From: a virus
Lineage: Duplodnaviria; Heunggongvirae; Uroviricota; Caudoviricetes
Virus record (IMG/VR): IMGVR_UViG_3300045988_155859
DNA length: 48,404 nt
Direction: 5' to 3' (one strand)
Positions 3,341 through 46,491 of the stretch are shown in pieces. Both the position numbers and the translations under genes were made by a program. Numbering within the stretch: the stretch's first letter is position 1; the number at the start of each line of letters is the position of its first letter. The notes beneath the pieces were generated by a model. The model made no database searches, had not been told where the DNA came from, and worked only from the letters and a program-made list of their open reading frames with translations.

Positions 3341-3444
3341 GGTTATATAATTCTATAAATCTATATTTATAGAACGAGGTAAGCATAACCAACTTTTTGG
3401 CGGATGAAAAGCGTTTTATATAATTATATAAATCTATAATCATG
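3341..3444. repeat. AT-rich iterated motif cluster upstream of parF (candidate centromere/operator)
   Basis: Two blocks, TATATAATTCTATAAATCTATATTTATAGA and TTTTATATAATTATATAAATCTATAATCA, immediately upstream of the parF start. Confidence 0.55.
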
Positions 3445-4712: not shown

Positions 4713-4727
4713 CTCACGATATGTGGT
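4713..4727. promoter_or_regulatory. Weaker operator-like site CTCACGATATGTGGT
   Basis: Right half-site TGTGGT conserved, left half degenerate. Confidence 0.4.
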
Positions 4728-4734
4728 TTTAATA

Positions 4735-4749
4735 CCACATATCGTGGTT
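4735..4749. promoter_or_regulatory. Operator ACCACATATCGTGGT
   Basis: ACCAC-N5-GTGGT dyad just upstream of the Cro-like gene RBS. Confidence 0.6.
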
Positions 4750-4767: not shown

Positions 4768-5262
4768 ATGACCTTTCAGGAGTGGGTTGACGAAAATGGA
4801 GGCCAAATTGGTGTTGCCAGAAAGTTTGGCTTTACGTCATCACTGATTGGTGCCTGGTATCGCTTCGAGAGATTCCCTCGTGCGGATAACCTGACGCTGC
4901 TGGTGGCGTATTCGGAAGGCCGGATTAACGTCCAGCAATGGGCGGCAGATTTTGCCGAACGTCAGCGCCAGCGTAGCGATGGCACATCGGTTCGGCAGAA
5001 CAAGATCAAAGGGAATCTCCCTGTTAACTGCTTATCAAGGCTGAAAGCGGTTTTCTCTGAGCTGGGGATGCCTGCGGAGCGTTGCAATCTACGCGGTCCG
5101 CGATTCATTGCTCGCTGGAAACACTCACATGTAACCGTTTCAGAGGTTCGTGATGCGATTACCGTGCTGGAGCTTAAGAATAAAGATTCCAGCGATATCG
5201 AGCTGATTCATAAGGAGATTAGCAACGCCCGGCGTTCAGCACTTGGGAGGCTTGAGGAATGA
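4768..5262 (+). CDS. Cro-like or other early HTH regulator (164 aa)
   Basis: First rightward gene opposite cI, with GGAG RBS. N-terminal QIGVARKFGFTSSLIGAWYRFERFP resembles Cro/YdaS-type HTH; longer than a canonical Cro. Confidence 0.5.
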   Translation: MTFQEWVDENGGQIGVARKFGFTSSLIGAWYRFERFPRADNLTLLVAYSEGRINVQQWAADFAERQRQRSDGTSVRQNKIKGNLPVNCLSRLKAVFSELGMPAERCNLRGPRFIARWKHSHVTVSEVRDAITVLELKNKDSSDIELIHKEISNARRSALGRLEE

Positions 5263-5774
5263 TGATTCTGGCCTTCTTTGGTGATAATCACCAGATTCAA
5301 TCGCAGGTGGTGCACTACCTTGATCAAACGATTAAAGGATTTGTTATCGATCATATTGATAACGATAGCAAACGTCTATCTGTAGAGCAGAAAATTGGAG
5401 GTGTGCAGCGACTGGTTGCCAGCCGTAACAGACGTGACACCGTAACAGTCGTTACGGGGATTACGGAGGTCATGGAGTACCAGATGTTGCTGCATCGTGG
5501 AGCTGTTTTCTGCGTTCTTCCTGGTATTCTGCCAGCAATTCTTGCTCGTGGTTTTGTCCCTATTGATGAGTCGTTCTTATATGTAACCCCAAGCCGTTCC
5601 CTTCTGGATACGGAGGCGAAGCGTCGCATTTATATGATGCCGGACGAGGCATTTTCTGAATGTTACCGCCGTGAAATGAGGTTGGGTAAACGAGAAGTGT
5701 CTGTTGTTCGTGATGGCAGGTTTTTAAGAAGCCGCACGGTGAAAAGCACCAGAAATGACGGGGGCCATCAATGA
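5259..5774 (+). CDS. Hypothetical protein
   Basis: 171-aa ORF overlapping the neighbouring stop/start codons in the early-right operon. Confidence 0.4.
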   Translation: MMILAFFGDNHQIQSQVVHYLDQTIKGFVIDHIDNDSKRLSVEQKIGGVQRLVASRNRRDTVTVVTGITEVMEYQMLLHRGAVFCVLPGILPAILARGFVPIDESFLYVTPSRSLLDTEAKRRIYMMPDEAFSECYRREMRLGKREVSVVRDGRFLRSRTVKSTRNDGGHQ

Positions 5775-6004
5775 GTAGTTATGTTCGCGGTGCTGCGATG
5801 CATTGCCAGAATCCCCAATTCTGGCGCTTTCTGGTCAGTAAAACAGGGAAGAACGTTTCAAACAGTTCTGAGGCCTCTGTGATTCTGCGTGAGTTTTGCG
5901 GGATCTCATCCCGTAAAGAGCTGGCAAAGAACTACGCGGCCAGAAGCATGTATGTCCAGTTAATCAACGAGTTCAACCTCTTTATCAATGGTAAGGGGCG
6001 CTGA
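5771..6004 (+). CDS. Hypothetical protein
   Basis: 77-aa ORF, overlapping stop/start codons. Confidence 0.35.
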   Translation: MSSYVRGAAMHCQNPQFWRFLVSKTGKNVSNSSEASVILREFCGISSRKELAKNYAARSMYVQLINEFNLFINGKGR

Positions 6005-6408
6005 TGAACGGACGTACACCAACGAAGAAAGAGAAACTTTATATACAAGCGGTGCTCACTCACGTGGGTTGCATAGCTTGCATTATTGATGGCCGTGAAA
6101 TTGAGAATCCAGAGCTGTGGACGGAGCTACATCACGATCCTGATTACGGCAGCGTTGATGAGAATTGCCACTTCCATAGCTTTGGGTTGTGCGCACCACA
6201 TCATCGCGGTGTTGTGCCTGGTGGTGGGCGTGTGCCTCCGCATATTGCCGTTCGTCACCCTCCCCTGAGTAATTGTGCTCGCTTTGTTGAGCGTTATGGC
6301 ACAGATGAATTTTTGTGTGCGCAGACGTGGGAGCTGTTGCCGCAGTCAGTTAAAGACGAAATTGGGTTTGATCTTAGTCTTGGTGAAGTACCAGGGGATA
6401 CCAAATGA
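6004..6408 (+). CDS. Cys/His-rich protein, possibly a zinc-binding nuclease-like nin-region protein
   Basis: CIAC...CHFH...CAPHHRG pattern; family not confidently recognised. Confidence 0.3.
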   Translation: MNGRTPTKKEKLYIQAVLTHVGCIACIIDGREIENPELWTELHHDPDYGSVDENCHFHSFGLCAPHHRGVVPGGGRVPPHIAVRHPPLSNCARFVERYGTDEFLCAQTWELLPQSVKDEIGFDLSLGEVPGDTK

Positions 6409-6737
6409 GATATACCGGCTTTCGCAAACCAGCGACAAGGAAAAGCAAATACGGCAATAAAAAAACGGTTGTCGATGATATCGCTTTTGATAGCAAAAAA
6501 GAGGCTGATTACTACTGCGAACTGAAGCTACTGAGAAAAGCTGGCCGCGTTGTGACGTTTCTTATGCAGGTGCCTTTTCATCTGCCAGGTGGTGTCGTTT
6601 ATAAACTTGATTTCATGGTGTTTTATGACGATGGGACGATTGATTGTGTCGACACTAAAGGTGTGCGAACAGACGTCTACATCATGAAGAAAAAGCAGGT
6701 AGAGGCGCTTTATCCCGTCACGATACGGGAGATCTGA
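6405..6737 (+). CDS. DUF1064-like phage protein
   Basis: N-terminal KYGNKKTVVDDIAFDSKKEADYYCEL matches my recollection of the DUF1064 family. Confidence 0.45.
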   Translation: MRYTGFRKPATRKSKYGNKKTVVDDIAFDSKKEADYYCELKLLRKAGRVVTFLMQVPFHLPGGVVYKLDFMVFYDDGTIDCVDTKGVRTDVYIMKKKQVEALYPVTIREI

Positions 6738-6740
6738 ACA

Positions 6741-7118
6741 GTGAGACGCGATCTGGATAGCTTGTTTGAGCTATGGGCGCTGTGGGTGCGCAATGGCTGC
6801 AACGCCCGTAGCGGTTTCGCGTCGATGTTAGAAATGATGATGGTTACGCGCTGCCAGTTTACCGGAGGGGGCGGCGCACCAAATGACTCACTGGAAACCA
6901 GTATAGAGGGAGCGGTGACGGCCCTCACGGTAGTTGATGAGACTGCGGCGCTGGTTGTCCGAATTGAATACGGGGCGTGGGAGATTCGGGGCCTCGACAT
7001 AAATGCACCGCATATTGATAAAGCCCACGCCCTTTCTCTTAGCCTCAGACAGTATCGCCGGAAGCTGGCAAAAGCCAGGGCGTATGTTGTCGACTATTTG
7101 AAAAAGCGAAGAGAGTAA
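6741..7118 (+). CDS. Possible Q-like antiterminator or late-gene regulator
   Basis: GTG-start 125-aa ORF at the end of the early-right operon, immediately upstream of a repeated promoter/leader cassette (the syntenic position of Q in lambdoid phages); sequence similarity itself is weak. Confidence 0.3.
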   Translation: MRRDLDSLFELWALWVRNGCNARSGFASMLEMMMVTRCQFTGGGGAPNDSLETSIEGAVTALTVVDETAALVVRIEYGAWEIRGLDINAPHIDKAHALSLSLRQYRRKLAKARAYVVDYLKKRRE

Positions 7119-7170
7119 AAGTGTCATTTTGAGCTGTTTTGATGGTGTGTAGACATCGGGAACATCGAAA

Positions 7171-7287
7171 ATCTATAAATATATAATTATAGATTTATAT
7201 AAAAAGTGCTTTACAGGTGGGAAAAAATTTCCTAAGGTTATACCCGAAACCGAGCGATACCCGCCCTGGTTAAACCGGAGAAATCTG
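7171..7287 (+). promoter_or_regulatory. Repeated promoter/5'-leader cassette, copy A
   Basis: ATATAATTATAGATTTATATAAAAAG-GCTTTACAGGTGGGAAAAAATTTCCTAAGGTTATACCCGAAACCGAGCGATACCCGCCCTGGTTAAACCGGAG then ATG; near-identical to 14708-14818 and 45995-46110. Contains TTTACA (candidate -35) and GGAG RBS. Confidence 0.5.
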
Positions 7288-8355
7288 ATGAATAAACAAG
7301 TAATTATTTCTGACTGGATCAACAACCCTAACAGCCTGTTAAGCACTGATACTGGCTACCTATTACGCCATGTTAATGGTCGTATGGTCAAAAGCGATGA
7401 GCACGAAACCTTTTTCTTTGTTGAAGACGATGGGCGTATCTATGAGGATGGTTACTCTTATGAAGCCCAAACTGGTTGTATCCCTGCGGAGCTGGTGGAT
7501 GTAACAGAAGATCTGCGCAAAGCATGGCTTGAACAGCAGCAGCGCGGAGATGATTACGTAAACACCTATCAGGAACGCCAGAACGCGCGTCTTGCCCGAT
7601 ATATTGCTCGTGCAGAAAAAGCCAGAAAAGAAGGTGCGGTAGCGCATAAGCGAGCGCATGACCTGTTGGATGTGATCCCGTTAGGCCAGCCGATTTTAGT
7701 TGACCATTATAGCGCGAAAGGCCATCGCCGCCGTTTGTCTAAAGCTGATGCGTTATTCAGAAAAGCGTTTGTTGAATGCGAAAGTAAAGCATCACACTAC
7801 GAGAGCAAAGCCGCAGGTGTTGGTCGTAATGGAATTTCGTCTGATGATCCTGATGCGCTATTTAAGTTGCTTCGTAAGCTGCAAGGCTGCATGAAGTCAC
7901 ACGTCAAAATGAAGGCCGCAAATAAGGCCATTCGCAAATACAAAAAAGACCAAATACAGCAGCTTTCTGCATTAATCGATCTCAGGTTTACAGAAAGCGA
8001 AGCCAAAGAGTTACTGGCCGGAGATTTCTGTGGGCGCATCGGATTCCCTTCATACGCACTGAGCAACAATAACGCCGAAATCAAACGACTACAGAGCCGT
8101 ATTAAGGAGCTTGAATCGGTCAAGTCTGTAACAGGAGCACAGCGCGAAGAATACGACGGCTTTTCTATGGAGATAGATCCAGAGGATAACCGCATCCTGT
8201 TTTATTTCCCTGGCAAACCAGAGGCAAACATTCGTTCGCTGCTTAAATCACGCGCCTTTAAGTGGAGTCCAACCCGTAATGCATGGGTTCGCAAGATTAC
8301 TCCAAACGCCCTGGCTGATGCCCGATATCTGAAAGAATCGCTATTGAAAGCCTGA
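7288..8355 (+). CDS. DUF3560-like protein
   Basis: 355 aa with GQPILVDHYSAKGHRRR motif, which I associate with DUF3560; first gene downstream of cassette copy A. Confidence 0.45.
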   Translation: MNKQVIISDWINNPNSLLSTDTGYLLRHVNGRMVKSDEHETFFFVEDDGRIYEDGYSYEAQTGCIPAELVDVTEDLRKAWLEQQQRGDDYVNTYQERQNARLARYIARAEKARKEGAVAHKRAHDLLDVIPLGQPILVDHYSAKGHRRRLSKADALFRKAFVECESKASHYESKAAGVGRNGISSDDPDALFKLLRKLQGCMKSHVKMKAANKAIRKYKKDQIQQLSALIDLRFTESEAKELLAGDFCGRIGFPSYALSNNNAEIKRLQSRIKELESVKSVTGAQREEYDGFSMEIDPEDNRILFYFPGKPEANIRSLLKSRAFKWSPTRNAWVRKITPNALADARYLKESLLKA

Positions 8356-8387
8356 CAGTAAGCCTACGGCGGGATGTCTCCCGCCGT

Positions 8388-8411
8388 ATATAGAATTATA
8401 TATTTATATAA
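8388..8411. repeat. AT-rich motif cluster (ATAGAATTATATATTTATATAAATG)
   Basis: Same TATA-rich motif family, upstream of the 8412 ORF. Confidence 0.45.
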
Positions 8412-8714
8412 ATGTATAAGGACGCCTCGACAATGAAACGCAAAATTATTAACCCCCAAGATGTGATTAATTTCCTGACCGATCACCCATGTTCAAAAGT
8501 GGACGTAATCGCGGAGCACATTGGTGTGTCGCAGAACTCTATGCGTTGCAGACTGAGAAGCATGGTTGCCGAAGGACAGATAACAACCAGGAAAATAAAT
8601 GGTTGCCTGTACTACTCCGCTAAACCGGAATTGCCATTTGGCATGAATCCTAACTCCATGTTGTTTAACACCTTATTAGCCAAAGTTAAGCCGTTGAGAG
8701 GGGCTGTGGCATGA
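8412..8714 (+). CDS. Putative winged-helix DNA-binding protein
   Basis: 100-aa ORF with VDVIAEHIGVSQNSMRCRLRSMVAEGQI helix-turn-helix-like segment; true start may be the internal Met at 8433. Confidence 0.4.
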   Translation: MYKDASTMKRKIINPQDVINFLTDHPCSKVDVIAEHIGVSQNSMRCRLRSMVAEGQITTRKINGCLYYSAKPELPFGMNPNSMLFNTLLAKVKPLRGAVA

Positions 8715-9076
8715 GCATCAAAACACATACCGGAATAATCATTACCAATGATGGTGAGAAAAAAGTGAAGTTGCGCGAGACGCCGACAACCTGGTGTGTT
8801 GGTCCGAAAGAAACATATCGCAAGGAAGATGGCCGTCGTTGTGGGGCACCACTTTCCCGCCGTCGCCTCCTTTTGAGCACGATAAAACCTATCGGGCAGG
8901 TTGAGCAACCAACGACTCCGGTAACGAAGATTTCAGACAAGAGTCTGGCAAACCTGATCGCCGATGCGGACAAGGTGCTGGAGCGGAACACCCCAGTAGC
9001 CGATGAGGAATGGTGGCAGGATTTCCGAGCCGCAATGCTAGAGCTTCAGGAACGTCGTCGGGAGGAGTTGAAGTGA
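8711..9076 (+). CDS. Hypothetical protein
   Basis: 121-aa ORF with stop/start overlaps on both sides. Confidence 0.4.
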   Translation: MSIKTHTGIIITNDGEKKVKLRETPTTWCVGPKETYRKEDGRRCGAPLSRRRLLLSTIKPIGQVEQPTTPVTKISDKSLANLIADADKVLERNTPVADEEWWQDFRAAMLELQERRREELK

Positions 9077-9081
9077 GCAAG

Positions 9082-9702
9082 ATGAAAGAGCGCGGCATGA
9101 TTTTTAATGATGCGATGGTCAGGGCCATCCTCGAAGGCAGGAAGACGCAGACTCGTCGACCTGTAAAAAATGTCAGGGCCGATAACTGCCTGGTTATCCG
9201 TAAACCGACAAAGAAACGCAATGGTGTCTATACCCACGTTATGGATGCACCGGAACATGGTTTATGCCCGTTCGGTAACGTTGGTGATCGCATATGGGTC
9301 CGTGAAACATTCAACGCTTTTTGGCTGGATAACGATGTCATTCAGGAAATCAAAGATGGTGTCTCTCTGGCTTCTGAACTGTGTGATTACAAGGCTGATT
9401 ACTCAGATAGTAGCAAGCCAGCTGAGGGCTGGACCCCGTCGATTCACATGCCGCGCTGGGCTTCACGTATTTTGCTGGAAATTACCGACGTGCGTGTGGA
9501 ACGGCTGCATGACATGAGCGAGGCAGATGCTAAAGCGGAAGGCGCATCTCCGGCGACGTACAAGATTACACCGCCGGAAGCTGTTTATCGCGTTGGCTTT
9601 GGTGATATCTGGCGCGGTATTTACGGGCAAGAGAACTGGCTATCTAACCCGTGGGTATGGGTAATTGAGTTTAAACGTATTCAGGGGGCAACCAGTGAGT
9701 AA
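9082..9702 (+). CDS. ASCH/PUA-like domain protein (putative)
   Basis: MIFNDAMVRAILEGRKTQTRR N-terminal motif; start moved to the ATG at 9082, which has a GGAGGAG RBS. Confidence 0.4.
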   Translation: MKERGMIFNDAMVRAILEGRKTQTRRPVKNVRADNCLVIRKPTKKRNGVYTHVMDAPEHGLCPFGNVGDRIWVRETFNAFWLDNDVIQEIKDGVSLASELCDYKADYSDSSKPAEGWTPSIHMPRWASRILLEITDVRVERLHDMSEADAKAEGASPATYKITPPEAVYRVGFGDIWRGIYGQENWLSNPWVWVIEFKRIQGATSE

Positions 9703-9952
9703 TTCCGCACGGCTACAGCTTGGTTTTTCACCGCTATCAAAAACCATCGTGTTGGCCAAAATGCGCGATTTAGGTGACGGAACAAAACGCCGTGTAGGCA
9801 ATGATCGCGGTTGTGATGTAACCAACGAGGCCGCACAACTCGTTTGGCATCTTGTCATGGCAGAAGGCGGTGAAATCAATTGGGAGCTGGATGATGGTTC
9901 TCGCATGGTGTTAAGGGCAGAAAAGCAGGGGGCAAACGATGAAAAACCGTAA
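9695..9952 (+). CDS. Hypothetical protein
   Basis: In-frame GTG at 9695 with AGGGGG RBS and GTGA overlap of the upstream stop. Confidence 0.35.
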   Translation: MSNSARLQLGFSPLSKTIVLAKMRDLGDGTKRRVGNDRGCDVTNEAAQLVWHLVMAEGGEINWELDDGSRMVLRAEKQGANDEKP

Positions 9953-10130
9953 AGCAAAGATGCTTATTTCCCGTGTATACAGACTTTGCTACCCCAGCCA
10001 GTGGTTGAGAGTTAGCAATCGCCGTGTGGTGTTGTTTTCATTTTCTGGAATTGCCAGAGAGGGAGTCAAAGATAAGCGCAGCGCGGCGCAAAACCGCTGG
10101 AAAAACCACTTGCGTACTAAAGGAGAGTGA
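9939..10130 (+). CDS. Hypothetical small basic protein
   Basis: 63-aa ORF ending in the conserved junction GTGATATGG shared by downstream genes. Confidence 0.3.
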   Translation: MKNRKAKMLISRVYRLCYPSQWLRVSNRRVVLFSFSGIAREGVKDKRSAAQNRWKNHLRTKGE

Positions 10131-10131
10131 T

Positions 10132-10341
10132 ATGGCTGTTGCCGCAAGTTACACCATGCATCTCTACTGTGATTGTCGTCAGTGTACAAATGGTAAATAT
10201 CAGTCGCCAGACTTCGGTGAGTATATCGGTACGTCATGGGCAGGCTGTGCAAAAGAGGCGCGCAAGGATGGCTGGCGAATAAGCAAAGACAAAACGCGTG
10301 CTTTTGCGCCCGGGCATAAAGTTTTGAGGATTAATAAATGA
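10132..10341 (+). CDS. Hypothetical Cys-rich small protein
   Basis: Start at the internal Met with AAGGAGAG RBS; MAVAASYTMHLYCDCRQC... Confidence 0.4.
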   Translation: MAVAASYTMHLYCDCRQCTNGKYQSPDFGEYIGTSWAGCAKEARKDGWRISKDKTRAFAPGHKVLRINK

Positions 10342-10787
10342 CCACTATTACCAAAGAACGTGCGGAGATTAAATCATTCATCACAGGCTTCCTGAGCGAC
10401 CCGGCGCACGATAACCAATCTTCAAGCAGTCTGCTTGCCAATGTGTTTCGTATCGCACTGGCATCGTTGGAAGCAGAGCCAGTCGCGTGGCGATATCGCT
10501 ACGTGAAAAAAGGCGTTACGGACTCTCAGGGGGAGCCGTGGGTTGGTGACTGGAAATATGTACCGACAAAAGAGGATTGCAACGACAGGCCGAGCTATGA
10601 AATTCAGGCGTTATTCACTCCCCCGCCTGTGCCACTGATACCAGAAGGATTGATTAAAGCAGTGCGCTTCTATGAACAGGTTAAGCGTGAAAATCCGCCA
10701 GTCGAAACCGGAGCATGGAAAGACGCTGTTGACTGGGTTCTCGAAGAGGCTTGTCAGGCTGTAAACATTGGCATCAAAGGAGGGTGA
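10338..10787 (+). CDS. Hypothetical protein, member of the IALASLEAE paralogue family
   Basis: Contains FRIALASLEAEPVAW; related motifs in the 11080 and 11495 ORFs. Confidence 0.45.
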   Translation: MTTITKERAEIKSFITGFLSDPAHDNQSSSSLLANVFRIALASLEAEPVAWRYRYVKKGVTDSQGEPWVGDWKYVPTKEDCNDRPSYEIQALFTPPPVPLIPEGLIKAVRFYEQVKRENPPVETGAWKDAVDWVLEEACQAVNIGIKGG

Positions 10788-10788
10788 T

Positions 10789-11076
10789 ATGGCAACTTTG
10801 CAGGAATTAATCGACCTGACGCCAGAACAGGAAAAAGCGTGGAATCGCCTTGTAAAGGCTGTAAAGGATTTCAGGGCAGCCGGAGGAAAGTTTTATAGCG
10901 TCCTGGACACGCTGAGCGCATACAACGGCGAGCACGTTGCCAGCATTGATAACGATAAGGGCTACCACACTGCAAGCGTCTATATGCCTAGCATTGATGC
11001 GCCAGGGCTAACCAGTTGGGCTGATGATTGGCACGGCATCACGCTGAAAGATGGGGTTGAAGTGGATGAGGACTAA
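10789..11076 (+). CDS. Hypothetical protein
   Basis: Start at the Met following GGAGGGTGATATGG; 95 aa. Confidence 0.4.
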   Translation: MATLQELIDLTPEQEKAWNRLVKAVKDFRAAGGKFYSVLDTLSAYNGEHVASIDNDKGYHTASVYMPSIDAPGLTSWADDWHGITLKDGVEVDED

Positions 11077-11079
11077 CAC

Positions 11080-11493
11080 ATGACTACTTTTACCGACAAA
11101 GAACTGATTAAAGAAATCAAAGAGCGCATAGGCAGCCTGGACGTCCGAGACAATATTGAGCGTCGGGCTTATGAAATTGCTCTGGCATCGCTGGAAGCAG
11201 AGGCAGTTATGTTCTGTATATCAGGACAAAATGTAGATTCAGAAGAACATGTATCAACCAGCAAAGCGGTTGTTGATGCCTGGGTTGAAGAATGGAATCA
11301 GGTTGACGGAAGTCCTGGCGAACCACTGTACAAAACTATGCCACTCTACTATCACGCTGCCTTGCCAGCGCCGGTAGTGCCGGATGAAATGTATTGGCAG
11401 GATGCGCCAGTTGAAGGCAGCAGCAAAGCGGCTGCATACGCTACAGGCTGGAATGCCTGCCGCGCCGCCATGCTTCAGGGGAAAGGGAAGTGA
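11080..11493 (+). CDS. Hypothetical protein, IALASLEAE paralogue
   Basis: Contains AYEIALASLEAEAV. Confidence 0.45.
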   Translation: MTTFTDKELIKEIKERIGSLDVRDNIERRAYEIALASLEAEAVMFCISGQNVDSEEHVSTSKAVVDAWVEEWNQVDGSPGEPLYKTMPLYYHAALPAPVVPDEMYWQDAPVEGSSKAAAYATGWNACRAAMLQGKGK

Positions 11494-11494
11494 T

Positions 11495-11770
11495 ATGGCT
11501 ACTTTTACCAAAGAGCAATTGATTGCCCATATTCGTGAACGTAAGGAAGCGCGCCAGAGAATGTTGGATACGGTAACTATTAACCCCGGATTTCGTGAAT
11601 ATCTTGAAAGAGAGCTTGCTACAGATGAAATTGCACTGGCATCCCTGGCATCTGCACCTGTTGCATGGCTAGTTGGAGGGCGTTTGTTCACAACTGAGAT
11701 AGCTGCGGGGATGTACGCTAGTGAGGTGAGGAAAGCAGTTAAGCCGCTATTCTTTTCTGCACTACTGTGA
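11495..11770 (+). CDS. Hypothetical protein, IALASLEAE paralogue
   Basis: Start at MATFTKEQ after GGGAAGTGATATGG; contains EIALASLASAPVAW. Confidence 0.4.
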   Translation: MATFTKEQLIAHIRERKEARQRMLDTVTINPGFREYLERELATDEIALASLASAPVAWLVGGRLFTTEIAAGMYASEVRKAVKPLFFSALL

Positions 11771-11914
11771 GTATTGTTTTTTTATTGATCGATTAACCAC
11801 ATTTTGAAGGTTTTTTTATGGGGAAACCTTGTTTTAGGTGGTAACTGGGTGTAGTGTTTCATTTAACGTAGTAAAACTGCGTTAAGCGATTACCGCGTAA
11901 TTTGTTGCTTTATG

Positions 11915-11947
11915 AAGCCCTGCCTTTTTCGGCGGGGCTTTTTTTTT
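11915..11947 (+). terminator. Intrinsic terminator immediately upstream of the lysis cassette
   Basis: GAAGCCCTGCC-TTTTTC-GGCGGGGCTT hairpin followed by a run of 9 T; the holin ATG is 14 nt downstream. Confidence 0.7.
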
Positions 11948-11960
11948 AACGAGGATTTCA

Positions 11961-12356
11961 ATGTCAGCAGAACCAATTTCCGGTACGGCCGTTGCTGCTG
12001 GTGGCCTGATGGGTGCCAGCGTTTTTGGTATTGCAACTGGTATTGATTACGGCGTTGTATTCGGGGCATTTGCTGGCGCTGTTTTCTATGTTGCTACAGC
12101 GGTGAATATTAGCCGTCTCAAGCTGATTGGCTATTTCTTTACATCGTTCATTGTTGGAGTGATTGGAGCGCCGTTAGTTGGCTCATTTCTTGCCAAATGG
12201 ACCAGCTACAACGATCGACCTCTTGATGCGCTTGGTGCGGTTATTGTGGCTGCATTGACAATTAAAATCCTCACGTTCGTAAACAGCCAGGATCTCGGTA
12301 GCATCTTTGGAATACTTTCCCGCTTACGTGGAGGGGGTTCAAATGGTAAGCAGTGA
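11961..12356 (+). CDS. Holin-like membrane protein
   Basis: 131 aa with several hydrophobic segments; first gene of a cassette that continues with the endolysin and spanins. Confidence 0.5.
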   Translation: MSAEPISGTAVAAGGLMGASVFGIATGIDYGVVFGAFAGAVFYVATAVNISRLKLIGYFFTSFIVGVIGAPLVGSFLAKWTSYNDRPLDALGAVIVAALTIKILTFVNSQDLGSIFGILSRLRGGGSNGKQ

Positions 12357-12639
12357 CCCGTCAGCACTGATTAATGCGGTGCTTTGCACAGTAATAGTAA
12401 TGGCGCTGATGCTTTATCGACGGAAAGACTCCAGGCATCGTCCATTTGTTTCCTTTCTGGCTTATATCTACGTCATTGTATACGCCAATGTTCCCTTCCG
12501 TTATGTGTTCGGTCTTTATCAAGAATCCCACTGGCTGGTGGTTATTGGAAATCTGATTATCTGCATCGTTGTTCTGTATTTCAGGGGCAATCTGGCGCGG
12601 ATAGTTGACGCATTAGGATTTAATCATGACCAAAGATGA
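12343..12639 (+). CDS. Second small membrane protein (holin or antiholin-like)
   Basis: Start at the internal Met with GGAGGGGG RBS; hydrophobic segments; sits between the holin and the endolysin. Confidence 0.45.
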   Translation: MVSSDPSALINAVLCTVIVMALMLYRRKDSRHRPFVSFLAYIYVIVYANVPFRYVFGLYQESHWLVVIGNLIICIVVLYFRGNLARIVDALGFNHDQR

Positions 12640-13168
12640 GATTTTTAACAGCATTCTTGGAAAAGAGGGCGGCTATGTGGATCACCCTGACGACAAGGGA
12701 GGCCCAACAAAGTGGGGCATTACTCAGAACACTGCCCGTGCTCATGGATACCGTGGCGATATGCGCGATTTAACCCGCGAACAGGCACTAGAAATCCTTG
12801 AGGCTGATTACTGGTACGGACCACGCTTTGATCAGGTGGCCGCATTATCCTCTGATATTGCCGCAGAGCTGTGTGATACCGGTGTGAATATGGGGCCAAC
12901 AGTGGCGTCCAAAATGCTTCAACGCTGGCTGAATGTGTTCAATCTGCGTGGGAAGCTGTATCCCGATTTGGATGCAGATGGACGAATCGGTCCACGTACC
13001 ATTAATGCGCTGCGTGCTTATCTTGGGAATCGGGGAAAAGACGGCGAACGGGTGATGCTGACGTCGCTGAACTGTACGCAGGGCGAACGCTATCTGGAGT
13101 TGGCGGAGAAGCGCGAGGCGAATGAGTCGTTTGTCTACGGCTGGATGAAAGAGCGAGTGGTGGTATGA
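12626..13168 (+). CDS. Endolysin, GH108-type muramidase with peptidoglycan-binding domain
   Basis: N-terminal EGGYVDHPDDKGGPTKWGIT motif characteristic of GH108 lysozymes. Confidence 0.8.
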   Translation: MTKDEIFNSILGKEGGYVDHPDDKGGPTKWGITQNTARAHGYRGDMRDLTREQALEILEADYWYGPRFDQVAALSSDIAAELCDTGVNMGPTVASKMLQRWLNVFNLRGKLYPDLDADGRIGPRTINALRAYLGNRGKDGERVMLTSLNCTQGERYLELAEKREANESFVYGWMKERVVV

Positions 13169-13443
13169 CTGGTTTGAAGGCCGTTTTGTCATTTATTGGC
13201 ACAATTATATTGGTTGCATTCGGCGCGTTTGGTTTTGGTCGTATGAAGGGGCGAGAAAAGGCCGAAGATGAAGCTGAAAAGCAGCGCATTAATGAGAATG
13301 CAGCCGCCGTAAAAGCCACTGCGGAGCGGCGTATAGAAGTGACAAAAGAGGCGGGGAATGTACAGCAGAGTGTTAACCATATGGCTGATGACGATGTTGA
13401 TCGCGAGCTGCGGGAGTCGTGGAAGCGTCCCGGTGGTGGTTGA
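13165..13443 (+). CDS. Rz-like inner-membrane spanin
   Basis: 92 aa with an N-terminal transmembrane segment then a charged, coiled-coil-like region; directly after the endolysin. Confidence 0.6.
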   Translation: MTGLKAVLSFIGTIILVAFGAFGFGRMKGREKAEDEAEKQRINENAAAVKATAERRIEVTKEAGNVQQSVNHMADDDVDRELRESWKRPGGG

Positions 13444-13567
13444 TACCGCCTGTGATTGGGTAAAGCCCATCTACCTGACTGATCACGACATCGATGTTAT
13501 GGACCGCCAGACAAAGAAAGATATTCTGGCTCATAACAGGGCATGGGAAATCAACTGCCGAAAGTAA
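13358..13567 (+). CDS. Rz1-like outer-membrane lipoprotein spanin, overlapping Rz in another frame
   Basis: Lipoprotein-type signal with lipobox-like LIASC; starts inside the Rz gene and extends beyond it. Confidence 0.55.
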   Translation: MYSRVLTIWLMTMLIASCGSRGSVPVVVDTACDWVKPIYLTDHDIDVMDRQTKKDILAHNRAWEINCRK

Positions 13568-13600
13568 TATATATTTCTATAATTATATAAATATATAGTT
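13563..13600. repeat. AT-rich motif cluster (TATATATTTCTATAATTATATAAATATATAG)
   Basis: Same TATA-rich motif family, downstream of the lysis cassette. Confidence 0.45.
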
Positions 13601-13736
13601 ACAACATTCTATGCGCTTTTCTCATGGGCGCACGCATCAACCATGTTTGTCTGATATGCCGCCGCGCCCAAAAATCCTGAATTTATTGGCTGGGATTTTC
13701 GTGCGCGGCGCCACACCAGACAAACAAATCAAATAT

Positions 13737-13812
13737 GGCCCCTTAGCTTAGTGGTTAGAGCAGGCGACTCATAATCGCACGGTCATCGGTTCAAATCCGG
13801 TAGGGGCCACCA
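13737..13812 (+). tRNA. tRNA with anticodon CAU (Met, or Ile if lysidine-modified)
   Basis: 76 nt folding by hand into a cloverleaf: 7-bp acceptor stem (GGCCCCT/AGGGGCC), D-arm GCTT...GAGC, anticodon loop CTCATAA, T-loop TTCAAAT, encoded CCA end. Confidence 0.8.
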
Positions 13813-14119
13813 ATTCACCCTCACACATAAAGATAAGCGCGGTGGAGTTACTTCTTCGTGCTCATCTTTATGCGTGCCTGGTGCGCATTTCGGGCGAACG
13901 TGGGGCTAAGTTACAGGCAGGGCCTGTTATCCGCAAAGGGGTAAAAGCTGGAGCGGCACGGAACTGTAGCCGTGTTACCAAAACAGCGCTGTCGGGCGAT
14001 ATCCGGCACACAACAGGCAAGGGCATTAATCAGTCTGGTTAGTGCCCTTTTCGTTGTGTCTGCTGTAGAGCTGGTCAGCGTTATGACTGCCGGAGATAAG
14101 CGCCGGAGGCACAACTAAC

Positions 14120-14707
14120 ATGGAGGCAATTGCATTGTTTAATCTGATTTATGCAGATCCCCCCTGGGAATACAAAGATAAGTGTAAGGATGGGAATCGT
14201 GGAGCTGGTTTTAAGTATCCAACGATGAAAGCTGAGGATATTGCTCGTATTCCTGTCTGGCAGCTTGCTAATCCTGAATCGTGTTTGTTGGCCATGTGGT
14301 GGGTTCCGACTCAGCCAGAAGAAGCGTTGCTGGTGGTGAAAGCATGGGGATTCAGGCTTATGACCATGAAGGGCTTCACATGGAACAAATGTGGTAGCCG
14401 ACAACCAGATAAGCTGGTGATGGGGATGGGGCATATGACTCGTGCAAACAGTGAAGATTGCTTGTTTGCGGTAAAAGGCAAATTGCCGACCCGCCTTGAT
14501 GCGGGGATCATTCAGTCGTTTACATCGCCTCGTCTGGAGCATTCTCGGAAGCCTGATGTGGTTCGTGACAAGCTGGTAAGGCTGTTAGGTGATGTTCCTC
14601 GTATTGAGCTGTTTGCTCGCGGTGATTTACCTGATGGTTGGCATGGCTGGGGCAACCAGTGCAATGGAGGTATCCAGTTGCATGATGCTCTCTGGCAAGT
14701 GGCATAG
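14120..14707 (+). CDS. MT-A70-family DNA N6-adenine methyltransferase
   Basis: IYADPPWEY (DPPW catalytic motif) near the N-terminus; 195 aa. Confidence 0.8.
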   Translation: MEAIALFNLIYADPPWEYKDKCKDGNRGAGFKYPTMKAEDIARIPVWQLANPESCLLAMWWVPTQPEEALLVVKAWGFRLMTMKGFTWNKCGSRQPDKLVMGMGHMTRANSEDCLFAVKGKLPTRLDAGIIQSFTSPRLEHSRKPDVVRDKLVRLLGDVPRIELFARGDLPDGWHGWGNQCNGGIQLHDALWQVA

Positions 14708-14818
14708 AATTATATAATTATAGATTTATATAAAAAGCGCTTTACAGGTGGGAAAAAATTTCCTAAGGTTATACCCGAAACCGAGCGATACCCGCCCTGG
14801 TTAAACCGGAGAAATCTG
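14708..14818 (+). promoter_or_regulatory. Repeated promoter/5'-leader cassette, copy B
   Basis: Near-identical to copies A and C; begins directly after the methyltransferase stop and ends at the 14819 ATG. Confidence 0.5.
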
Positions 14819-15088
14819 ATGAAAGTACAAGACCGTGAAGTAGTAAAAAACCTCCTGCAATACCTGACCTCAAAAAACCTGACGGGCAGCGTTGAGTTCC
14901 GTGAAGCGTTAAAACATTTCAACGTCACTACGGTTTATCGTTGGGAAAACAAACATTCTGAAAGACCGTATGTGGTGGATGTTTTTGCGCCTGATATTGA
15001 GTGCGGTTTTGAGCGTCATTCGTTCAAGGAGAAACATTCTGCTGATTTTTTTTGTGAGGTTGTATGTGCGGCAGGAGATGATGAGTGA
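14819..15088 (+). CDS. Hypothetical protein
   Basis: 89-aa ORF directly downstream of cassette copy B. Confidence 0.4.
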   Translation: MKVQDREVVKNLLQYLTSKNLTGSVEFREALKHFNVTTVYRWENKHSERPYVVDVFAPDIECGFERHSFKEKHSADFFCEVVCAAGDDE

Positions 15089-15285: not shown

Positions 15286-15308
15286 ACCGTAACGATAACG
15301 AACAACGA

Positions 15309-15334
15309 GCCTCGGCAATTGCCGGGGCTTTTTT
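15309..15334 (+). terminator. Intrinsic terminator
   Basis: GCCTCGGC-AATT-GCCGGGGC hairpin followed by TTTTTT. Confidence 0.6.
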
Positions 15335-15359
15335 ACATCCAGACAAAGGAGAACATGGG

Positions 15360-16005: not shown

Positions 16006-16034
16006 AGCCTCGCGTGTCGCGGGGCTTTTATTTT
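16006..16034 (+). terminator. Intrinsic terminator
   Basis: AGCCTCGCG-TGT-CGCGGGGCT hairpin followed by TTTTATTTT. Confidence 0.5.
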
Positions 16035-16456: not shown

Positions 16457-16690
16457 CGCATTACAGCAGCTCTTGTGCTTACCAGGGGCTGCGATAATGC
16501 GCAAACCAAAGCTGCCTCATTAACTCCAGCTCGCTGTGGAGTTAATGCTGGTGGCTTTTTTATTACTGGAAGGTGGGCGACCGCCGTCAGTTGCGACCTG
16601 ACGACAGTCATTCATACCCACAGGGTGCCGTGGATACAAACCGAGGCCCACTTGCTTGCACAAGCGAGGGGATTTTAGCGGATAAACGGC

Positions 16691-45994: not shown

Positions 45995-46110
45995 ATAGAA
46001 TTATATAATTATAGATTTATATAAAAAGTGCTTTACAGGTGGGAAAAAATTTCCTAAGGTTATACCCGAAACCGAGCGATACCCGCCCTGGTTAAACCGG
46101 AGATAACCCG
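45995..46110 (+). promoter_or_regulatory. Repeated promoter/5'-leader cassette, copy C
   Basis: Near-identical to copies A and B over about 100 bp; differs only in the last 10 nt before the ATG. Confidence 0.5.
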
Positions 46111-46491
46111 ATGAGCATGATTAAAATCCGCAAAAACGCTTTCCTTAAAATTCAAACTATCCTGGCTGGTTCTGTTGGCGTGATTTGCCGTTCTTCTTCA
46201 AGCCGCATCGATGACGGCTACGATGATGAGTATCGTTTGTCCTCGTGCGATGAGGCTTTAACCTGGCTGAAGGAGAATCAGGAACGTGCCCAGGTATATC
46301 TGGAAACAGAGAACGGCAATCAGATGCTCCGTATTAGCGGTCGTTATGGATTTGAAACCACATTCATGGCCTATTTTAATCAGGCTTACTTTGACAAGGA
46401 GTTGGCCTGGTACACTGATCGCATGAGCAAAAGCGAGCCAGCCCCGATTACACCGCCGAACGATAAACCATTTTTATTCCTCGTTAAGTAA
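46111..46491 (+). CDS. Hypothetical protein
   Basis: 126-aa ORF directly downstream of cassette copy C. Confidence 0.45.
   Translation: MSMIKIRKNAFLKIQTILAGSVGVICRSSSSRIDDGYDDEYRLSSCDEALTWLKENQERAQVYLETENGNQMLRISGRYGFETTFMAYFNQAYFDKELAWYTDRMSKSEPAPITPPNDKPFLFLVK

Follow-up and report, generated by a model that had tools for sequence, protein, structure and literature searches.

A predicted intrinsic terminator directly upstream of the holin gene in an Escherichia coli phage-plasmid and a candidate Q21-like antiterminator

Introduction

The lambdoid Q cassette consists of the Q gene, the promoter PR', a pause element, a terminator and the late genes, and the Q protein of phage 21 (Q21) resembles sigma region 4 (Yin et al., doi 10.1101/651190). 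AlpA bypasses terminators located 26-54 nt after the transcription start and directly 5' of lysis genes (PMC7969949), and in Stx phages transcription from PR' that stops at tR' gives rise to the RNA StxS (PMC7547250). Here we describe a 48,404-nucleotide stretch of tailed-phage DNA (IMG/VR record IMGVR_UViG_3300045988_155859; this whole stretch is hereafter called the window), in which a strong intrinsic terminator is predicted just upstream of the holin gene of a lysis cassette and the product of the 6741-7118 gene is a candidate antiterminator. We favor, with moderate confidence, the reading that this terminator is a tR'-like gate on the lysis cassette, which would be opened by an antiterminator of the Q21 superfamily.

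The window resembles the lambdoid Q cassette (phage 21 Q; PDB 6P18, 6JNX) in having an intrinsic terminator before the lysis genes, a co-directional late array with more terminators, and a small protein, putatively of the Q21 fold or superfamily, that is encoded by the last gene of the early operon, with a promoter element after the gene. Unlike the lambdoid case, the replicon here is a plasmid-prophage whose tail is P2-like and whose c4/antirepressor immunity resembles that of P1. In the AlpA-alpBCDE system of Pseudomonas aeruginosa (PMC7969949, PMC9371919), an antiterminator loaded at a DNA site is combined with a terminator that lies a few tens of nt after the promoter and before self-lysis genes, and this layout matches the promoter-terminator-holin order of four relatives of the window (L017, L018, L005 and L020; handles of this kind denote related lineages). 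Like StxS and the lambda 6S RNA (PMC7547250), the window has a conserved non-coding unit of ~80-190 nt with a strong terminator at its end, located before the late genes; in contrast to them, it has no evident strong constitutive promoter, and its RNA is a predicted one.

Results

The preliminary description of this locus had placed a strong terminator close before the holin start, and our analysis bears this out (Table 1). The sequence at 11914-11947 reads GAAGCCCTGCC-TTTTTC-GGCGGGGCTTT and then Ts; the hairpin (11914-11941) has 7 G-C pairs in its 11-pair stem and the nine-T run occupies 11939-11947, which is the GC-rich stem-loop directly before a U run that defines an intrinsic (Rho-independent) terminator. 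The hairpin alone folds at -20.5 kcal/mol (z = -5.4), and none of 200 shuffled sequences folded as well. When a stringent filter was applied (a hairpin of -15 kcal/mol or better, then at least 7 T in 9), this was the sole site on the + strand of the window that passed, the chance expectation being a mean of 0.025 sites per strand in 40 first-order Markov shuffles. The T run is followed by AACGAGGATTTCA, which includes the Shine-Dalgarno (SD)-like GAGGA, and then by the holin ATG, leaving a gap of 13 nt between T run and ATG. This ATG is the right holin start, because the Phage_holin_8 alignment begins at residue 3. A scan with a position weight matrix (PWM) found no sigma-70-like -10/-35 pair positioned to start transcription 3' of the hairpin, and a built-in promoter scan called no + strand promoter within 5500-15000. 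A promoter overlapping or lying 3' of the terminator was rejected as a candidate, since neither scan contained one. With neither room nor a signal for a promoter between terminator and holin gene, holin expression is therefore predicted to need read-through. The earlier claims that this interval cannot hold a promoter and that the lysis genes are expressed by upstream read-through thus stand computationally, and the same logic would apply to the terminators at 15307 and 16006. The proposed make-up of the cassette (two membrane proteins, a GH108 endolysin and an overlapping Rz/Rz1 pair) was likewise confirmed by Pfam and PHROG matches.

Table 1. Coordinates of features in the window and of pre-lysis terminators in related lineages (the latter in positions of the respective relative)
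Feature	Coordinates	Strand	Details
Candidate antiterminator, 125 aa	6741-7118	+	sigma region-4-like helix-turn-helix (HTH) and N-terminal helices; putative remote relative of phage 21 Q
P1	7168-7238	+	AT-rich array with 8-bp periodicity (7168-7205), then TTTACA-17-TAAGGT (7210-7238); directly 3' of the Q-like gene
GC-rich hairpin and P2	8362-8419	+	hairpin without T run (8362-8385); AT-rich P2 (8387-8419)
Accessory block	8433-11770	+	small genes including MarR-like PHROG and ead/Ea22-like; from the list of open reading frames (ORFs), PHROGs and relatives
Conserved non-coding leader, 143 nt	11771-11913	+	weak hairpin, invariant core, stem-loop, variable spacer
Strong intrinsic terminator	11914-11947	+	11-bp stem, 6-nt loop, nine T
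Holin, Phage_holin_8	11951-12356	+	SD GAGGA 11951-11955, ATG 11961; Pfam E 1e-37
Second membrane protein, Phage_holin_3_7	12307-12639	+	Pfam E 1e-17
Endolysin, GH108 and PG_binding_3 (peptidoglycan-binding)	12626-13168	+	Pfam
Overlapping spanins	13165-13567	+	Rz 13165-13443, Rz1 13358-13567; PHROG 1026 and 1275, E about 1e-32
P3, AT-rich	13565-13601	ambiguous	directly 3' of the lysis cassette
Second strong intrinsic terminator	15307-15336	+	in a 75-nt gap, gene end 15285 to gene start 15360
Third strong intrinsic terminator	16006-16034	+	in a 48-nt gap, gene end 15998 to gene start 16046
Long hairpin, -23.5 kcal/mol, and TTTTTTAT	16511-16562	+	in the gap before the ParB/Srx-like gene and structural genes
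Terminator of L004 (Salmonella plasmid)	6145-6171		AAGCCTCGCTT-TGACC-AAGCGGGGCTT
Terminator of L015	11585-11613		AAAGCCTCGCTGATATCAAGCGGGGCTTT
Terminator of L005/L021 (Pantoea)	8132-8151		AAGCCCGCGCATGTGGGCTT
Terminator of L018	18016-18040		AAAGCCTCGCAATTAGCGGGGCTTT
Terminator of L017	17165-17183		GCCCGCTTATATAGCGGGT
Terminator of L020	15394-15425		91-codon ORF between terminator and holin

Further terminators follow the lysis genes in the same orientation (Table 1), and relatives carry homologous ones with altered stems. Because several terminators lie inside one co-directional array, expression would need read-through at several points, which is what processive antitermination would provide.

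Relatives were gathered both via the Q-like protein and via the core of the leader described below. In every lineage where the lysis cassette could be located, a terminator was present just 5' of it, and the hairpin sequences differed; in all, six divergent relatives share the position (Table 1). The same terminator arrangement is seen in L004 and L015, whose holin is different and whose endolysin is of the lysozyme type. The position of the terminator is thus kept though its sequence changes, which indicates that the predicted stop signal itself is under selection. In L017, L018, L019, L005 and L020, the pre-lysis terminator is preceded at a distance of 0-16 nt by an AT-rich promoter-like element, and another AT-rich element lies directly 3' of the Q-like gene. 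Such a compact promoter-terminator-holin layout leaves no room for an RNA signal and therefore fits a factor loaded at promoter DNA, as Q and AlpA are (PMC7969949).

The gene for the candidate antiterminator is the last of the early rightward operon, a series of overlapping ORFs (4768-7118) downstream of a divergent XRE repressor gene, and the end of the early operon is the usual place of Q. As in a Q cassette, this distal delayed-early gene is followed by a promoter, P1, whose sigma-70-like match scored 8.9 in the PWM scan (99.98th percentile), and the overall gene order is repressor, early operon, Q-like gene, promoter element and late genes. An exhaustive profile search collected 130 cluster representatives (50% identity) of the Q-like family, which NCBI annotation labels 'hypothetical'. 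When a profile of 109 family members was compared with the PDB, Q21 was matched at E 4.4e-5 over Q21 residues 12-95, including the LELWG-W motif, and hhalign of the family against Q21 gave a probability of 93%. Q21 chains were also the top Foldseek matches of an AlphaFold model of the window protein (mean predicted local distance difference test score (pLDDT) 77), with probability up to 0.94 and E about 0.3. PF06530 was matched weakly by 10 of the 109 members (best E 1e-4), and 57 of the 109 representatives matched the PA0613 family (NCBIfam NF051483) at E below 1e-3, the best at 6.7e-9. These results support the assignment of the 6741-7118 product as a probable remote homologue of the phage 21 Q antiterminator, and the suggestion in the preliminary description that this product might be involved in antitermination gains support to that extent. 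Residues 23-46 (SGFASMLEMMMVTRCQF-GGGG-P) are the most conserved segment of the family, and their pLDDT is below 50; binding to a partner, for example RNA polymerase, may be needed to order them.

One could envisage instead that the terminator is a passive insulator with some leak, which shields the lysis genes from transcription of the accessory genes while the fraction of polymerases that read through unaided gives the holin, and that the 6741-7118 product is an ordinary regulator of the sigma region-4 type, either an activator or a repressor. Against this, the Q21 alignment covers the N-terminal half of the protein as well as the HTH. Moreover, at least three such terminators stand in series before the structural genes, so that unaided leak would multiply to very little, and most polymerases should be stopped by a hairpin of -20.5 kcal/mol that is followed by nine U. 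We consider this explanation unlikely.

The leader had been described as a 190-bp non-coding region, and this proved correct: from the upstream TGA (11768-11770) to the holin ATG, 11771-11960 contains chance ORFs only. It consists of a weak hairpin (11807-11830), an invariant core (11826-11883), a 9-bp stem-loop (11863-11885) and a variable spacer (11886-11913), followed by the terminator. Its two hairpins are separated by 32 nt; the leader as a whole has a better fold than shuffled sequences (z -4.1), the first hairpin being weak (z -1.6). The leader is 96-99% identical across 58 plasmids and three Yersinia phages, and in an alignment of 26 distinct variants 11826-11883 was essentially invariant. 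Variation clusters in the loop and 3' arm of the first hairpin (purine-to-purine changes only) and at a few positions of the would-be promoter spacer. Salmonella-type relatives keep 11774-11883 at ~85-96% identity but have other genes on both sides, another ~30-nt spacer and another terminator. Similarity to relatives starts exactly at the stop codon ending at 11770 (11768-11771), and the gene upstream varies, so that the switch at 11768-11771 looks like a precise recombination junction. The upstream gene is ead/Ea22-like in the window, and in most relatives it is a 64-66-aa gene (motif ...QWH-G-YYG...). By these comparisons the leader is, as far as can be read from the alignments, a separately conserved module moving between different flanking genes. 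It had no match in other phages outside the phage-plasmid family, and among complete E. coli genomes it was found in only three chromosomal places, one listed match spanning just 35 nt of the terminator. A mini-ORF at 11818 (MGKPCFRW) was rejected as a conserved peptide: its codon 2 varies freely, there is a stop at that codon in L015, and L004 lacks the ATG.

The best sigma-70-like match in the leader, TTGTTT-17-TAGTGT at 11829-11857, lies in the invariant core (PWM 7.3, 99.94th percentile; 3/6 positions in each hexamer), and the leader may have a weak promoter of its own. If transcription began near 11865, an ~80-nt RNA would result, with the 9-bp stem-loop first and the terminator last, which would be the PR'-6S-tR' pattern. 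In an alternative view, the leader serves chiefly as a small-RNA gene: a promoter within the core or 5' of it would produce an 80-160-nt RNA ending at 11947 and acting in trans during plasmid carriage, and the terminator would primarily form the 3' end of this RNA. The StxS precedent (PMC7547250), the promoter-like match, the conservation of the element as a unit independent of its neighbors and the long U tail with its stem-loop architecture are in agreement with such a gene, as is a sub-threshold match to GcvB (Rfam RF00022, permissive mode) at 11789-11946, with 32.4 bits and E 1e-5 in 300 nt. In that match the G/U-rich stretch and the stem-loop align to GcvB R1 and SL2. However, the match falls short of the gathering score (42), and neither the L004 nor the L015 leader, both of which are of the Salmonella type and share the core, reached E 0.05; we rejected a GcvB-like small RNA for these two reasons and treat the similarity as generic small-RNA-like architecture plus terminator. 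In addition, the single-stranded spacer, the expected place of a seed, is the least conserved part of the leader, the promoter match is weak, and the Prokaryotic Genome Annotation Pipeline (PGAP) annotated no RNA there. A small-RNA gene would be compatible with a gate at the same site, but as the principal explanation of the leader we regard it as improbable.

Least probable of all is a cis-acting leader RNA, put-like or a competing antiterminator structure, which would render upstream polymerase termination-resistant without a promoter-loaded protein: although the 58-nt invariant core with its 9-bp stem-loop lies 28 nt 5' of the terminator and moves with it between flanking genes, the leader folds well, and base pairing is predicted between the window core and the terminator's 5' arm (-12.6 kcal/mol; p 0.015 relative to shuffled arms), this pairing was not significant in L004 (p 0.16) or L015 (p 0.26), the G/U-rich core pairs about equally with unrelated terminators, the terminator was always formed in the full-length minimum-free-energy structure, no Rfam family reached threshold in the leader, and distant relatives have no such leader, their promoter-like element abutting the terminator. 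An attenuator based on pairing of the core with the 5' arm was rejected because the L004 and L015 duplexes were no better than shuffles and unrelated terminators paired equally well; an apparent G-C to A-U compensatory change was seen in L004. The Rfam scans gave no match to an HK022 put-type element, for which no dedicated test was made.

P1, P2 and P3 belong to a set of AT-rich elements, found at 2646-2668, 3354-3371, 3414-3440, 7168-7205, 8387-8419, 13565-13601, 14708-14736 and 45999-46027. They are near-palindromic and built from 8-bp units (TATAGAAT / TATATAAT / TATAAATA), a motif that occurs 19 times against 0.38 expected. They are always intergenic and just 5' of genes, including parA, the small gene after parA and genes of the early region, and the motif variant differs from one related lineage to the next, suggesting that the elements may be operators of a co-evolving global regulator. 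Three near-identical copies of ~127 nt (7174-7300, 14705-14831 and 45996-46122) contain the AT-rich array and then ~90 identical nt with TTTACA-17-TAAGGT, a common 5' untranslated region (UTR) and a ribosome-binding site, joined to the start codons of three unrelated genes (a DUF3560 gene, an 89-aa ORF and a 126-aa ORF). P2 is the nearest upstream promoter-like element toward the lysis genes, and P2-type elements lie directly 3' of the Q-like gene in distant relatives. As Q-binding sites the AT-rich elements were rejected, because they also flank parA, occur in the early region and are missing from L023 and L025; they are probably promoter or operator sites of another, lineage-specific regulator and not proven Q sites. 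A 5' UTR motif, (G)ACCTCGACAATG or ACGCCTCGACAATG, was observed at the start of the gene after P2-type elements in several divergent lineages (window 8418-8435; L017 9850-9872; L018 10400-10428; L024 10405-10425).

The window is a complete or nearly complete phage-plasmid. In the region tested it is ~99% identical to the E. coli plasmid pMS21199B and to a 48.5-kb plasmid of ATCC 25922, and it is ~98% identical to three Yersinia myophages (vB_YpM_39, 41 and 44). Matches were found in 72 of 5,426 complete genomes, including the quality-control strain ATCC 25922, and 70 of these were on plasmids. An annotated relative encodes RepA, ParA, an XRE repressor, a long co-directional early-gene array, lysis genes, terminase, head genes and a P2-like contractile tail. 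Our literature search on this phage-plasmid family found nothing. Rfam matches to C4 antisense RNA, isrK and ryfA at 1299-2152 adjoin an ORF6N-Rha antirepressor gene (47-1057); the immunity therefore resembles P1 immI (an antirepressor control module), and the gene order is lambdoid. A palindrome with a 14-bp perfect stem (4714-4747, TCACGATATGTGGT...ACCACATATCGTGG) separates the XRE repressor gene from the early operon; the scan classed it as a bidirectional terminator-like site, and it is likely an operator. The accessory block is contiguous, without a non-coding gap, and its content differs between relatives. In the lysis cassette, the start annotated in relatives for the Phage_holin_3_7 gene corresponds to ~12343. 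Between the cassette and the MT-A70 methyltransferase gene, at 13644-13812, a 34-nt inverted repeat (85% complementary, 15-nt gap) sits directly 5' of a tRNA-Met(CAT) gene, and another terminator-like hairpin is located at 14019-14049.

Discussion

If the terminator at 11914-11947 is a tR'-like gate, polymerase arriving from upstream would halt 13 nt before the holin start in the plasmid-prophage state or early after induction, and no holin would be made. Induction would derepress the early rightward operon, whose last product is the Q21-like protein. By analogy with Q21, this protein would load on RNA polymerase at a promoter-proximal DNA site and travel along with it, giving a hairpin-resistant polymerase that would pass the gate into the holin, endolysin and spanin genes and would likewise pass the 15307, 16006 and 16511 terminators toward the structural genes. 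We infer from this analogy that the 6741-7118 product may be the antiterminator acting on the 11914-11947 terminator, and that its loading site could be the putative weak promoter of the leader core (start near 11865, ~80-nt RNA) or, further upstream, P1 or P2. The parallel with the lambda late leader drawn in the preliminary description is upheld in this form, with the refinements that the Q-like gene lies 4.8 kb upstream, the leader is a conserved element of its own and the candidates for a loading site are several.

A number of observations weigh against a Q-type gate. Unlike the Q gene of the lambdoid cassette, the Q-like gene does not adjoin the terminator, which is 4.8 kb away from it and 13 nt from the holin ATG. 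The window protein has only ~22% identity to Q21 over 90 aligned residues and no Pfam match, PF06530 (Phage_antitermQ) at E 0.01 included, so that it fails the curated family thresholds. It likewise has no direct sequence match in the PDB, the link to Q21 being at the level of profile or fold, and the sigma region-4 fold is common to many ordinary DNA-binding regulators. Whereas more than half of the family representatives match NF051483, the window protein itself aligned over its full length at 21.3 bits (E 2.5e-4), short of the cut-off of 100. Inspection of P1, P2 and the leader core revealed no recognizable Q-binding or sigma-dependent pause element: the repeats at 11837 and 11848 (GGTGGTAA / GGTGTAGT) are speculative, and a clear -10-like pause element was not seen. 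PWM and promoter scans detected no strong sigma-70 promoter in the leader or P2. Finally, the AT-rich elements occur at the parA promoter region as well, and L023 and L025 lack them despite having a Q-like gene.

We also put forward, tentatively, a broader proposal that we consider less likely than not. In it, the 125-aa protein would be a member of a large branch of the Q21 superfamily that lacks annotation (~130 clusters at 50% identity, many matching the PA0613 family). This protein would gate lysis cassettes via terminators close to the promoter, both in phage-plasmids and possibly at the R/F-pyocin locus of Pseudomonas, and in this lineage the 143-nt leader would be a self-contained PR'-tR' unit that makes an ~80-nt RNA in plasmid carriage, as with StxS. 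PA0613, for which the papers searched gave no function, presumably lies just 5' of the holin gene in the R/F-pyocin cluster.

The mechanism considered here would not be new, being ordinary lambdoid late control; the modest novelty lies in an unannotated Q-like family and a mobile leader module. The proposed gate would give a testable function to a protein family so far labeled 'hypothetical', would offer an explanation of how the holin of a common E. coli phage-plasmid could be kept silent, and suggests that the same switch may operate through the PA0613 gene of the pyocin locus.

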